From contig DATLNR010000134.1 in assembly GCA_035536655.1 (NCBI GenBank), positions 34,846 to 98,845 on the forward strand: DNA of 64,000 bases, given 5' to 3'. Made by a program: the position numbers and the translations under genes. This document shows, in pieces, positions 4,988-40,069 of the stretch. Source of the DNA: Casimicrobiaceae bacterium (lineage in GTDB: Bacteria; Pseudomonadota; Gammaproteobacteria; Burkholderiales; Casimicrobiaceae). Positions within the stretch are counted from its first letter, which is position 1, and every line of letters begins with the position of its first letter. The notes under the pieces are model-generated. The model saw only the letters and a list, made by a program, of their open reading frames with translations. It made no database searches and had not been told where the DNA came from.

Positions 4988-6109
4988 CTATCGTTCGAGA
5001 AGGATCCGCAGCATGCGTCGCAGCGGTTCGGCCGCTCCCCACAACAGCTGGTCGCCGACGGTGAAAGCCGACACGTAACCCGGGCCAACATCGAGCTTGC
5101 GAAGCCGGCCGATCGGAATGTCGAGCGTGCCGGTCACCGCCGTCGGCGTGAGCTTGCGCATACTGTCCTCGCGTGTGTTGGGAACGACCCGCACCCACTC
5201 ATTGGCGCTGGCAAGCCCGCGCTCGATCGCTTCGAGCGGTAGATCCTCGCGTAGCTTGATCGTCAGCGCCTGCGAGTGACAGCGCATCGCGCCGACCCGC
5301 ACGCAAATCGACTCGACCGGAATCGTCGCGGGCCGGCCCGCTGTTCCGCGTCCGAGGATCTTGTTCAGTTCCGCGCCGCCCTTCCACTCTTCCTTCGACA
5401 TGCCGTTGCCGAGATCCTTGTCGATCCATGGAATCAAGCTGCCGGCGAGCGGAACGATCGTGTGCTCGGTCGGCAGTGCGCGATCGCGCAACGTCGCGGC
5501 AACATCGCGATCGATCTCGAGGATCGACGAAGCGGGATCGGCAAGCAACGTATGCGCGGCCTCGTGCGCGGCGCCCATCTGCACGAGCAACTCGCGCATG
5601 GCTTGCGCGCCTGCACCCGACGCAGCCTGATACGTCATGCACGTGACCCACTCGATCAGGTCGCGCTCGAGCAGTCCGGCCACCGCCATCATCATCAAGC
5701 TCACGGTGCAGTTGCCGCCGATGTAGTTGCGCACGTTCGCGCGCAATGCGGCGTCGATGACGGTGCGATTGACCGGATCGAGGATGATGACGGCATCCTC
5801 GTTCATGCGCATTGCACTCGCCGCGTCGATCCAGTAGCCGTCGAATCCCGCCGCGCGCAATTTCGGATACATCGCCTGCGTCCAGTCGCTGCCCTGGCAG
5901 GTGACGATGGCGTGAAGGCCGGCGAACGCTTTCGGATCGTTCGCGTCGAACAGCGCGGTTGCCTTGCCTGCAATCGTTGGCCCGCGAGCGCCCTTGGCCG
6001 ACGTCGAGAAGAACCGCGGCTCGATGTGCTCGAAATCACGCTCCTCGTGCATGCGCGCAAGGAGCACGGAGCCGACCATGCCGCGCCAACCAACGATTCC
6101 AACCTTCAT
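4988..6109 (-). CDS. asd: Aspartate-semialdehyde dehydrogenase
   Basis: [21 protein letters not shown] catalytic Cys, [25 protein letters not shown]. Confidence 0.98.
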
Positions 6110-6224
6110 GCGGACACCCTGATACCCGGGCCGGTGTCAAAGCCGTTTTGACCCGCCCCGTCTTTCTGGCCTGCTGGCACTTCGTGCCAACGCTCGCAGG
6201 GTGGAAGCGGAGGCCACGCGACCG

Positions 6225-6341
6225 TCAGGTCGTCTTGGTCGTCGCTTTTTTCGTGCCTGCGACGGGCGTGCGCGAACCGTCCTTCCGACGAACGGTGAAA
6301 GAACGAGAAACAATGGCGCACGGACGCATGACCACGATCAT
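6225..6341 (-). CDS. Putative Thr/Lys-rich leader peptide upstream of asd (38 aa)
   Basis: ATG overlaps the leuB stop (ATGA). Reads [38 protein letters not shown], followed by several hairpins before asd. Translation is inferred. Confidence 0.45.
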
Positions 6342-7405
6342 AGCATCAGCGCGGCAATGACCGCGTCGCCCATCGCGCGCGTGCCGATCGCGTCGCGGGC
6401 ACCGGCGATGTCGGCAGTGCGATGGCCGGCAGCAAGCACCGAACGCACGGCTCGCTCGATGCGGTCCGCAACGTCTGCGCGGTTGAACGTGTAGCGGAAC
6501 ATCATCGCAAGCGAGAGGATCGTCGCCAGCGGATTCGCCTTGTCGCGCCCGGCAATGTCCGGCGCCGACCCGTGGATCGGCTCGTACAATCCCTTGCCGC
6601 GCGCGTCGAGCGATGCCGAGGGAAGCATGCCGATCGAGCCGGCGAGCATCGACGCCTCGTCGGACAGAATGTCGCCGAACAGGTTGCCGGTGACGATGAC
6701 GTCGAACTGCTTCGGATTGCGCACGAGCTGCATCGCGGCGTTGTCGACGTACATGTGCGTAATGTCGATGTCCGGATAGTCGCGCGCGACTCTCGTCACC
6801 ACTTCGCGCCACAAGATCGACGTGTCGAGGACGTTTGCTTTGTCGACCGAAGTCAGGCGGCGCGAGCGCTTTGCCGCAATGTCGAAACCGACGCGCGCGA
6901 TGCGAACGATTTCCGACTCGCTGTAGCGCATAGTGTCGAAGCCTTCCGCTTCGCCGCTTGCGTTCGTGCGACGGCCGCGCGGCGTGCCGAAATAAACGTC
7001 ACCGGTCAACTCGCGCACGATCATCAAGTCGAGGCCGGCGACGACGTCGTGCTTCAGCGTCGATGCGGCGGCAAGCTCGGGGAACAACATCGCCGGCCGC
7101 AGGTTTGCGAAGAGCTCGAGCGACTTGCGCAGTGCGAGCAGCGCCTGCTCGGGCCGAAGCTCGCGCGGCGCCGTGTCGTACTTCGGGCCGCCGACTGCGC
7201 CCATCAGGATCGCGTCGGCCGATTGTCCGAGCGCGAGTGTCGCCGGCGGCAGCGGATGACCGGAGGCATCGTAAGCGGCACCACCGATGTCGGCCGTTTC
7301 CGTTTCGAGCGGCATGCCAGCGCGACGCAGCGCGTCGATGACGCGCAACGCCTGCCCAACGATTTCGGGACCGACGCCGTCGCCGGGCAGAACGGCGATC
7401 TTCAC
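6338..7405 (-). CDS. leuB: 3-isopropylmalate dehydrogenase
   Basis: [42 protein letters not shown]. Confidence 0.98.
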
Positions 7406-9479: not shown

Positions 9480-9581
9480 GGGGATCAACCGCAGGGGCGT
9501 GCGAACGTTATTTGAAAAGCCTAGCACACCCGTTGGCGGCGACTGCGGCTATGCTTCGTGCGCTTCAGAAGAGCACGAACG

Positions 9582-13333: not shown

Positions 13334-14041
13334 TCAGCCCTTGAGATTCACCGACCAGCGCCGGTAGACGTCGTCAGCGACCGCATTCAACCTCGACACG
13401 TTGCGCTCGAGGTTCGCGAGGATGTCGCGCGCGTTCTGCGTGGCATCCGTCGACTCGGCCGGCAAATCGCCGCCGGACAGGCGGATCCAATCGCGCGCGA
13501 TTGCCGTCGTCATCTCCGGATGTCCCTGGAAACCGATGTGGCGGCCGTCGACGACGTACGCCTGGTTCTCGTTGAATCGATTCGTCAGCACACGCGTCGC
13601 CCGCGGGGGAAGCGTGAAGTCCTCGTAATGCCACTCGAATGTCTTGAAGCCATCGCGCCCGCCGAACCACTCGCGCGCTTCGGGCGTGCGCTCGACGTCG
13701 ACGTCGATCCAGCCGATCTCGGTGTTGCTCGCCTTCGACACCTTCGCGCCGAGCGCCTTCGCCATCAGCTGTCCGCCGAGGCAATGACCGATCACCGGCA
13801 CGTCGTTGTCGACCGCGTCGCGAACCAGCGCCTCCATCGGCGCGACCCACGGCAGCGCATCGTTGACGCTCATCGGCCCGCCCATCATCCCGATGCCGGC
13901 GAACGACGTGGCACGCTCGGGAACCGGCTCGCCATCGTGCAGCGAAACGAGCTTCCACGGCCGCCCGTTCGCATCCAGCCATTCGCCGAGCCGTCCCGGC
14001 TCGTCACCAGGGGAGAAGCGGAAGACGGCGATGGGTTTCAT
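13334..14041 (-). CDS. Type 1 glutamine amidotransferase-like protein
   Basis: MGGPMSVND, GHCLGGQL nucleophile elbow, QGHPE. Confidence 0.88.
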   Translation of the reverse strand: MKPIAVFRFSPGDEPGRLGEWLDANGRPWKLVSLHDGEPVPERATSFAGIGMMGGPMSVNDALPWVAPMEALVRDAVDNDVPVIGHCLGGQLMAKALGAKVSKASNTEIGWIDVDVERTPEAREWFGGRDGFKTFEWHYEDFTLPPRATRVLTNRFNENQAYVVDGRHIGFQGHPEMTTAIARDWIRLSGGDLPAESTDATQNARDILANLERNVSRLNAVADDVYRRWSVNLKG

Positions 14042-39091: not shown

Positions 39092-40069
39092 GTGCAAAGA
39101 ATCCTGGCATGGCTCATCCGCGGCATCGCGCTGGCGGCATTGGCGACGGTCGCTTCTGCGCAGACGACGATGTCGTATCCGTCGAAGCCGATCCGCCTCA
39201 TCGTGCCGTTTCCGCCGGGCGCGGGAACCGACACAGTGGCGCGTTTCGTTGCGACGAAGCTCGGCGAATCGATGAACGCGACGATCGTTATCGACAACCG
39301 CACCGGGGCCGGCGGCGCAATCGGCGCCGCCGAAGCGTCGAAAGCCGACCCGGACGGCTATACGCTGCTTTTCGTCGCGTCGCCGTTCACCACCGTTGCC
39401 GCATCGACGAAAGCCCCGGGTTACGACCCGATCCGGAATTTCGTCCCGGTCGCGTCGATCGCCTCGGGCCCGCTCGCCTTCGTCGTCAACCCGACAGTGC
39501 CGGCCAGCACGATGCGCGAGTTCATTGCCTGGGCGCGGCAGAACCCCGGCAGGATCAACTACGGCTCCGCCGGACCGGGCAGCGTCAATCACCTGGCGCT
39601 GGAGCTCTTCATGGCAAGAACCGGCACCGAAATCGTCCATGTTCCGTATCGCGGCATCGCCGATGCCACGAAGGATCTTCTCGGCGGGCAGCTGCAGGCG
39701 ATGACGGCGTCGATTCCCGCAACGCTGCCGCAGCTTGCCGACAAGCGCGTGCGCGTCCTCGCCGTGACCGGCGACCGGCGCATTCCACAGATCCCCGACG
39801 CGCCGAGCTGGCAGGAAGAAGGCGTGACCGATGCGAACGTCATCAATTACTGGGGCGTCGTCGCACCGGCCGGCACGCCGGCCGAGATCGTGCGCAAGCT
39901 GAACAGCGAGATTCAGAAAGTGCTGGCGCAACCCGACGTGCGCGCGCGGCTCGAGCGCGAGGGCGCGGAGCTCGTCAGCGGACCGCCGGAGCGGCTGGGC
40001 ATCATCATCGAGCGCGACCTGACGAGCTGGCGCAAGTTGATCACCGAGGCGCGGATCGCGCTTCAGTGA
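39092..40069 (+). CDS. Tripartite tricarboxylate transporter solute receptor (Bug/TctC)
   Basis: YPSKPIRLIVPFPPGAGTD, NRTGAGG, NYGSAGPGS, HVPYRG. Confidence 0.93.
   Translation: MQRILAWLIRGIALAALATVASAQTTMSYPSKPIRLIVPFPPGAGTDTVARFVATKLGESMNATIVIDNRTGAGGAIGAAEASKADPDGYTLLFVASPFTTVAASTKAPGYDPIRNFVPVASIASGPLAFVVNPTVPASTMREFIAWARQNPGRINYGSAGPGSVNHLALELFMARTGTEIVHVPYRGIADATKDLLGGQLQAMTASIPATLPQLADKRVRVLAVTGDRRIPQIPDAPSWQEEGVTDANVINYWGVVAPAGTPAEIVRKLNSEIQKVLAQPDVRARLEREGAELVSGPPERLGIIIERDLTSWRKLITEARIALQ

Follow-up and report, generated by a model that had tools for sequence, protein, structure and literature searches.

The closest described counterpart of the element analysed here is SEP5 of Sinorhizobium meliloti. 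SEP5 is a translated small open reading frame (sORF) in the 5' untranslated region of asd (termed the aspartate dehydrogenase gene in that study). It carries six threonine (Thr) and three lysine (Lys) codons close to its 3' end, and a role as a leader peptide has been suggested (Hadjeras et al. 2023, Microlife, PMC10117765). SEP5 is reported to be conserved only in Sinorhizobium (PMC10117765). Our element lies between leuB and asd in a 64,000-nucleotide (nt) stretch of DNA from a Casimicrobiaceae bacterium (contig DATLNR010000134.1); we refer to this whole stretch as the window. Going by the published description of SEP5, Thr and Lys codons cluster in both towards the 3' end of an sORF directly before asd. 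Unlike SEP5, the Casimicrobiaceae element is not alphaproteobacterial, and SEP5 was described without isoleucine (Ile) codons, a promoter design or an RNA switch. Since SEP5 is limited to Sinorhizobium, an independent origin of the Casimicrobiaceae element is likely.

A second group of related systems comes from mycobacteria. In the leaderless polycysteine sORFs (the 'Cys ribulon') a stalled ribosome blocks a structure that hides the ribosome-binding site, and translation of the downstream gene goes up (Canestrari et al., bioRxiv 10.1101/834739). From Actinobacteria, leaderless leader peptides that have no U-tract terminator are on record (PMC8079986, PMC1262725), and trpL of S. meliloti is a leaderless leader in a proteobacterium (PMC10117765). 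Like the Cys ribulon, our element has its sensor codons near the stop and lacks a U-tract terminator; a leaderless start we infer from the spacing of its -10 box. The Cys ribulon is actinobacterial, senses Cys and relies on a duplex that sequesters the ribosome-binding site. In contrast, the Casimicrobiaceae element uses Thr, Lys and Ile codons, and its folds differ in the state of a G-rich segment upstream of the Shine-Dalgarno (SD) sequence.

The classical attenuators of the thrL (Enterobacteria, RF00506) and trp type share with the element the three-state ribosome logic that we propose for it, Thr and Ile codons as sensors of charged tRNA, and a hairpin on the sensor codons (1:2) that competes with an alternative helix. 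Here, however, there is no intrinsic terminator and no RF00506 match, Lys codons are present, and the segments are ordered C-C-G-G instead of 1-2-3-4. Furthermore, the controlled gene is asd and not thrABC, and the transcript is probably leaderless. An Rfam search of the window region up to E = 10 returned no Thr_leader or other leader match, and four relatives searched at the gathering score gave no leader family either. Hence, despite the same sensing logic, we do not file the element in the classical thrL family. With tnaC it shares sensing at the very end of the leader ORF, an adjoining C-rich RNA and the lack of an intrinsic terminator. Yet what tnaC responds to is free tryptophan, sensed by its nascent peptide at the stop, whereas here the peptide sequence is unconserved and the signal is codon identity.

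We find that this is a real and conserved cis-regulatory element of Casimicrobiaceae, of the leader-peptide attenuator kind and, as far as we found, undescribed. It probably acts as a ribosome-mediated leader-peptide switch that controls asd and raises Asd synthesis when Thr, Lys or Ile is limiting.

Conservation of the leader and its sensor codons

The minus strand of the window carries leuC, leuD, leuB and asd as well as a FimV-like gene, and the spacer between leuB and asd measures 228 nt (6337..6110; coordinates of all features in Table 1). An earlier annotation of the window, made by a model from the sequence alone (the sequence-only reading), had noticed an ATG (6341-6339) overlapping the leuB stop TGA (6340-6338). 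From this ATG it read a 38-codon ORF with the tail TKKATTKTT and the stop TGA 6227-6225. All of this is present on the minus strand. We prefer a 34-codon form in the same frame, which starts at the second ATG (6329), since the first one lies within the TATGAT hexamer of a -10-like box.

To define the element we used 55 distinct copies from genomes of Casimicrobiaceae (Burkholderiales), counted after duplicate removal. All 55 stand directly upstream of asd. A covariance model built from nine relatives, with the window copy left out, recovers the window copy at E = 4e-6 (match 6147-6254) and, among 138 genomes of the genus, finds one strong match each in 34. Copies also occur in 17/31, 3/3 and 2/2 genomes of other genera within the family, and matches elsewhere are weaker. 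Weak secondary matches turn up in G004, G109, G118 and G138. In the first 10 same-genus genomes the element lies between leuB and asd. The same-genus spacers of about 230-270 nt all contain an ORF with a Lys/Thr/Ile tail, an invariant TGCTAnGAT 6-7 nt before the in-frame ATG, and, downstream, a conserved GC-rich RNA. The model also reports a second match in the window (39254-39359, plus strand, E = 2e-4, 28 bits), which we rejected as a chance match in GC-rich coding DNA; the N-terminus of the ORF around it resembles a periplasmic binding protein of the Bug/TctC type.

Within the leader, conservation is concentrated in the last codons. ORF length ranges from 27 to 71 codons among the copies, and the N-terminal part is unconserved filler rich in Ala, Arg and Pro. 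The frame from ATG to tail is nevertheless kept in 50 of the 55 copies. Two copies have the ATG out of frame; both come from metagenome-assembled genomes (MAGs), and in one of them runs of five T stand beside it. About 80% of the last nine codons encode Thr, Lys or Ile in the 55-copy set, versus about 9% in the remaining peptide. Counted over the last 10 codons of 50 homologues, Thr makes up 45%, Lys 22% and Ile 12%, compared with 6%, 0.5% and 2.4% outside these codons. Thr occupies position -2 in all 50 and position -1 in 42, while Lys is found at position -3 in 31. In the window the tail is the only place with at least seven Thr, Lys or Ile codons in nine (127,948 nine-codon windows, six frames, 64 kb).

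The tail is not kept as a nucleotide sequence. Residue order and synonymous codons differ from copy to copy (KKITTTKTT, KKIATITTT, FIVKATKTTT, LKTTTKSIKTA and TKITTIKTT; further same-genus tails are AKTAKTT, KATKTTT, KKVTTITT and ILIKTTA), which argues for selection on what the codons mean rather than on their nucleotides. The rare Lys codon AAA accounts for 45% of the Lys codons in the tail, as opposed to 7% in the asd genes of the same loci. A rare codon at the sensing positions is what a starvation sensor would be expected to use.

The choice of amino acids matches the pathway. The enzyme encoded by asd, aspartate-semialdehyde dehydrogenase, acts just upstream of the branch point of the aspartate family, and its product feeds the Lys, Thr, Ile and methionine (Met) pathways. 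Thr, Lys and Ile are thus three of the four Asd-dependent end products, and the enrichment in the tail is confined to these three. The sequence-only reading had proposed a leader that senses Thr and Lys and whose codons should recur in the leuB-asd spacers of relatives. The tail is kept across the 55 copies and bears out the sensor; what the proposal omitted is Ile, whose codon ATC provides 12% of the tail.

A natural deletion variant retains exactly the tail. In the genome G186 (L062, ~1490-1520, on the strand of the element) the leader has shrunk to six codons, ATG-ACG-ATC-AAG-ACG-ACC-TGA (M-T-I-K-T-T-stop). This minimal leader overlaps the leuB stop as UGAUG. The -10 box and the N-terminal part are lost, and the downstream RNA is intact.

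The leader stop itself is UGA in 51 of the 55 copies, mostly in the context UGA-C. In Escherichia coli, UGA-C is a slowly terminating context. Slow release at this stop would prolong the masking of the segment behind it. Taken together, comparison of the copies supports the existence, the conservation, the coding nature and the codon bias of the leader well, and its reading as a coding sensor is likewise well supported.

Two alternative folds and the proposed output at asd

Behind the leader stop the RNA consists of the segments a, C1 and C2, a near-invariant GAGCG, segment G1, a linker L and segment G2, in this order. The stop itself lies in a hairpin, H0. H0 is predicted in most of the 55 copies and has the variants CGGCC/GGCCG, GGGC/GCCC and GCCC/GGGC, some of which turn the last amino acid into Ala, Gly or Pro. 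The sequence-only reading had placed this hairpin correctly, and three further stems it listed in this region exist as well. CCTGC/GCAGG (6170-6174 with 6196-6200) is the window's C2:G1 pairing, a compensatory variant of CCCCGC/GCGGGG in the family. TGGCCT/AGGCCA (6167-6172 with 6211-6216) can join a and C1 to G1 and L. TGGCAC/GTGCCA (6175-6189) belongs to a hairpin of the window copy.

Table 1. Features of the leader-asd region and the flanking genes, in window coordinates
Feature	Position	Strand	Basis or remark
Leader ORF, preferred form, 34 codons, ATG 6329-6327 to TGA 6227-6225	6225..6329	-	ATG 7 nt after the -10 box, the conserved start
Sensor tail ACG AAA AAA GCG ACG ACC AAG ACG ACC (TKKATTKTT)	6228..6254	-	Enrichment in homologues
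Hairpin H0, CGACC-UGAC-GGUCG, last Thr codons with first bases after the stop	6219..6232	-	Compensatory variants
Segments a + C1, CGGUCGCGUG + GCCUCCGCU, C-rich 5' strand used in folds X and Y	6206..6224	-	Covariance-model match; segment parsing in relatives
Segment C2, CCACCCUGC	6196..6204	-	Pairs with GCAGG 6170-6174
Extra hairpin UUGGCAC-GAA-GUGCCA, in the C2-G1 loop	6175..6190	-	Window only, absent from other copies
Segment G1 (GCAGG) + linker L (CCAGAAAGAC)	6160..6174	-	AGGCCA can pair with UGGCCU of a/C1
Segment G2, GGGGCGGG, G-rich, proposed effector: free in X, paired in Y	6152..6159	-	Folds of relatives
Insert with hairpins GUCAAA/UUUGAC and GACACC/GGUGUC, then asd SD AGGGUG (6115-6120)	6110..6152	-	Window-specific sequence
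Extended -10-like box TGCTATGAT, overlapping the leuB stop; proposed leader-asd promoter	6337..6345	-	TGnTAnnnT spacing in homologues
asd (aspartate-semialdehyde dehydrogenase), proposed controlled gene	4988..6109	-	Pfam PF01118 + PF02774
leuB	7405..6338	-	Pfam PF00180

Two folds compete for the segments a, C1 and G1; each of them is conserved and realised by several sequence solutions. Fold Y, the predicted minimum-free-energy structure of the full RNA for most of the copies inspected, comes in two classes. Class I (41 copies) combines H0 with the helices C2:G1 and C1:G2. These helices (P1, P2) are 91% paired, their covariation score lies above those of all 500 shuffles, and changes on both sides occur at 5 of 16 pairs. 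Class II (14 copies, one genus) combines H0 with a C2:G2 helix of 9-12 bp, which covaries (GCCUCCGC/GCGGAGGC, GCCCCCGC/GCGGGGGC, CCUCGUCCCC/GGGGCGAGG).

In fold X a long helix joins a and C1 to G1 and L, so that C2 comes to lie in the apical loop and G2 is unpaired. When transcripts end just before G2, the structure of minimum free energy is fold X for 34 of 40 class I copies and for almost all of the 14 class II copies. Its outer helix has at least eight sequence solutions, for example GUCGCGUC/GACGCGAC, GGGUCGGGC/GCCCGGGGACC, CCGCAC/GUGCGG, CGGGCA/UGCCCG, GGCGUC/GACGCC and CCGGUC/GACCGG. We judged the a:L pairing by duplex energies and by the folds of truncated transcripts, because MAFFT cannot align such short and variable segments column by column. 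The difference is moderate: cognate a:L duplexes average -8.5 kcal/mol, non-cognate ones -7.0 kcal/mol.

In class I, fold X has a mean energy of -27.9 kcal/mol, compared to -32.5 kcal/mol for the full RNA without the codons and -38.1 kcal/mol for the full RNA with them. With the codons masked, only about 4.6 kcal/mol of stability separate fold X from the better, best full fold, and fold X is the first to be transcribed. H0 adds about 5-6 kcal/mol and thereby tips the balance towards fold Y. Sequence comparison and folding models together thus give good support to two exclusive folds with covariation.

From these folds we propose the following mechanism. A short transcript would start at or next to the AUG of the 34-codon ORF, from an extended -10 promoter that overlaps the end of leuB. 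Of the leader only the last nine or so codons (Thr, Lys and Ile, with AAA over-represented) would matter. The ground state would be fold Y: H0 is formed, and G2 is buried through C1:G2 together with C2:G1 or, in class II, through C2:G2. A ribosome stalled on the Thr, Lys or Ile codons would mask the 5' arm of H0 and leave a accessible; fold X would then form first and persist, with G2 free. A ribosome at the stop would mask a, X would be barred and fold Y would win. Without translation H0 would form, and fold Y would win again. A free G2 beside the asd ribosome-binding site would open the site and lead to more Asd synthesis. Rho polarity possibly reinforces the response. Three of these steps are ones we infer: the leaderless start, the choice of fold X by stalling and the opening of the asd site by free G2.

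Several observations weigh against this scheme. In an equilibrium model, a ribosome footprint placed on the sensor codons or on the stop leaves the accessibility of the SD and AUG of asd unchanged (means 0.45-0.47). Blocking the 24 nt behind the stop shifts accessibility from 0.40 to 0.49 in 45 short copies and not at all in 10 long ones. An unrelated hairpin insert separates G2 from the SD in eight copies, the window included. Of the 40 class I copies about 6-15, according to the measure used, have a weak a:L helix or none, and the core of C1:G2 is invariant, which leaves covariation uninformative on this helix. The fold of the window spacer is barely better than that of shuffled sequences (z = -1.76); hence the weight of the evidence lies in conservation among relatives and not in the single sequence. 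The window copy also lacks a recognisable -35 element. Furthermore, 104 of the 138 genomes of the genus have no covariance-model match, so the element is dispensable. Finally, the copies are related by descent and counts across them are not independent.

How the switch would reach asd is best read from the position of G2. In 46 of the 55 copies 8-25 nt separate its 3' end from the asd ATG, so that it abuts the SD; in the window the distance is 42 nt. The helix of the off-state thus occupies the 5' part of the ribosome-binding region, and control of translation initiation is the most economical reading. It is the most likely candidate for the output, and it resembles the way in which the leaderless Cys sORFs of mycobacteria work. 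The sequence-only reading had likewise argued for translational attenuation by a stalling ribosome. For such attenuation the equilibrium accessibility models show no effect or a small one.

That reading had located the switch elsewhere, in two mutually exclusive stems at the asd SD, GTCAAA/TTTGAC (6136-6152) and GACACC/GGTGTC (6113-6138). Both stems (6113-6152) are present, but they sit in the insert. Comparable inserts, unrelated in sequence, are found in only 8 of 55 copies; the conserved switch lies upstream, at 6152-6232. We rejected direct sequestration of the asd SD as the conserved mechanism: partition-function models gave no consistent change with footprints and only a small one with a longer block, and the stems that cover the SD belong to the window-specific insert. 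Pairing of C1 (CCACC/CCUCC) with the SD was rejected too, as C1 variants and SD sequence do not covary on inspection. The minimum-free-energy fold of the window pairs C2 (CACCCUG) with the asd SD region (CAGGGUG), a pairing not seen in the other copies.

The main alternative is that the same sensor acts through Rho-dependent termination, similar to tna. Once the leader had been translated to its end and the ribosome had left, Rho would load on the naked C-rich leader and stop transcription before or inside asd, and a ribosome stalled at the last codons would block Rho. An intrinsic terminator is not supported. A consensus scan of the window region is negative, as the sequence-only reading had said of U-tract terminators, and the longest T run between leader stop and asd is three in all 55 copies. 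This suits Rho, as does the base composition: C exceeds G in 49 of 50 leader ORFs (C 0.41, G 0.33), and over the 36 nt that follow the stop C is 0.47 and G 0.32, compared to C 0.33 and G 0.36 in the asd coding sequence. Furthermore, the sensor codons adjoin the stop, an arrangement shared with tnaC and with the cys leaders of mycobacteria, where Rho was the initial proposal (PMC1262725). However, the C-rich tract is almost wholly paired in both folds and would be a poor Rho substrate, and a G content of about 32% is well above that of typical rut sites. Experiments on the mycobacterial Cys sORFs showed control of translation and not Rho (bioRxiv 10.1101/834739). Termination by Rho also leaves unexplained the conservation of two alternative folds in which the state of G2 differs. 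We therefore regard Rho as an unlikely main route and keep to control of translation initiation.

Probable transcript start and translation of the leader

In 50 of the 55 copies the motif TGnTAnnnT, an extended -10-like box, stands 6-8 nt before an in-frame ATG (hexamers TATGAT, TACGAT, TAGGAT and TAGCAT). In two further copies there is a -10-like hexamer, but the start is GTG or the TG extension is missing. The base that precedes the leader ATG is mostly C. Such a spacing between box and ATG would be expected of a transcript that begins with the A of the AUG or right beside it; the mRNA would then be leaderless. In G012 (L014 1758-2837, minus strand) a divergent gene for a 359-aa acyltransferase-3-like membrane protein parts leuB from the leader and asd, and the copy in G012 thus needs a promoter of its own. 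On sequence grounds, leader and asd probably form a separate leaderless transcript with its own promoter.

Many copies have a TTGC(T/A)(G/A) motif 18-19 nt upstream of the hexamer. A near-palindrome, TTGCTGC-N3-GCA(A/G)C, recurs in relatives 18-33 nt upstream of the -10 box. In some genomes it codes for the C-terminus of leuB (VAALQ*), and in others it stands alone in the spacer, its TTGCTG placed at -35 distance. Possible roles are those of a -35 element, of a binding site for a regulator, or of both.

A scan of the locus with promoter and terminator consensus sequences found no sigma-70-like or terminator-like site. The scan missed the -10 box because the window copy is without a -35 element. 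Nor can the box be argued from the window alone: TGNTANGAT matches the window once (the box at 6337..6345) against 1.5 matches expected by chance. We rejected this match as stand-alone evidence, since it is uninformative and only conservation counts.

The broader pattern TGnTAnnnT-N5-8-ATG/GTG has two matches in the window, at the leader and at the start of a class-I glutamine amidotransferase (GATase) gene (13337-14041, minus strand, 235 aa, PF00117). There, TGTTAAGCT and 6 nt precede the ATG, and the Pfam alignment of the GATase agrees with this start. The 235-aa gene is a candidate leaderless gene and hints that leaderless mRNAs are possibly used in this organism. Another extended -10-like motif, TGTGCTAGGCT (9515-9527, minus strand), lies about 35 nt upstream of the likely leuC start (ATG ~9479) and may be the promoter of the leu operon. 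No ORF with a Leu-codon leader was evident before leuC.

Another possibility is that the leader of the window is translated mainly from leuCDB read-through, by termination and reinitiation at the AUGA overlap. The overlapping ATG at 6341 is in frame with the conserved ATG, the box of the window is not preceded by a -35-like element, and the six-codon leader of G186, which has neither box nor N-terminal part, is coupled to leuB through UGAUG. However, the overlap with leuB is not kept as a trait: it arises because the TATGAT box happens to hold an in-frame ATG, and copies with TACGAT or TAGGAT are without such an ATG. The distance from the leuB stop down to the leader ATG is 13-139 nt in most copies. 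As the principal route, reinitiation is therefore improbable. It does not exclude a transcript of its own, and in the window, which is without a -35-like element, coupling to leuB translation may contribute too. The sequence-only reading had embedded the leader in a leu-asd operon; such coupling is possible in the window, but the conserved box and ATG point to a separate transcript.

A more radical reading denies that the ORF is translated. The element would then be a structured non-coding RNA or a protein-binding site, riboswitch-like or at the 3' end of the leuB transcript, and the A-rich ACG/AAG tract would be kept for RNA reasons. Part of the conservation is indeed structural, as the last Thr codons lie within H0. 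The element matches no leader family of Rfam, and mycobacteria offer a precedent in the LEU element, a leader-like ORF in which the codons were of no consequence (PMC1262725). But H0 takes in only the last 5-6 nt of the tract, and the nucleotides of the tract vary under a constant amino-acid composition. The frame to an ATG at a fixed distance from the -10 box is kept through many indels. Furthermore, the enrichment is specific to three end products of the pathway that asd feeds. We consider this reading very improbable and continue to treat the ORF as a coding sensor. Still less credit is due to the idea that the ORF encodes a small protein with its own function, to which the Thr/Lys tail would belong: a stable tagged form of SEP5 was detected in S. 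meliloti (PMC10117765), but here the N-terminal 20-60 residues vary in sequence and length with the composition of GC-rich filler (Ala/Arg/Pro), and a version of six codons exists.

Distribution and significance

Among the genomes searched the element is confined, by sequence search, to Casimicrobiaceae. In 16 genomes of other families of the order the leuB-asd spacer measures 25-54 nt where both genes were found, which leaves no room for the element. A DNA pattern scan of the GTDB species genomes gave 43 matches, of which 28 lie between leuB and asd. These 28 are labelled Casimicrobiaceae, Burkholderiales or beta/proteobacterial MAGs, except for one discordant Solirubrobacteraceae. The other 15 are scattered chance matches in unrelated phyla.

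Within the family the leuB-asd locus is a rearrangement hotspot from which the element has repeatedly been lost. Across 41 related genomes, searched at the DNA level, the leuB-asd spacers measure 25-1352 nt. In L008, L013, L017 and L018, of the same genus, a spacer of 582-663 nt is nearly filled by a forward GNAT-type acetyltransferase-like ORF, and the element is absent.

In practical terms the finding has a limited reach: nearly all members of the family are uncultured bacteria of soil and water, and the principle of sensing by leader peptides is textbook knowledge. The many natural compensatory variants of the two-fold switch are ready-made mutants.

In E. coli, asd is repressed by Lys, Thr and Met, and to our knowledge the mechanism has never been clearly resolved. 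The usual sensor of Lys is a riboswitch and not a leader peptide. We tentatively suggest that the element could be a proteobacterial counterpart of the mycobacterial 'ribulon': a leaderless, terminator-less Thr/Lys/Ile leader with a C-C-G-G switch that acts on the initiation of asd translation, and one of several Thr/Lys leaders that arose independently in front of asd in different phyla. If our reading of the switch is true, a single cis-acting device in Casimicrobiaceae would read three end products of the pathway through codon choice. A high-GC Gram-negative lineage would then use the leaderless and terminator-less leader design that is documented mainly in Actinobacteria.

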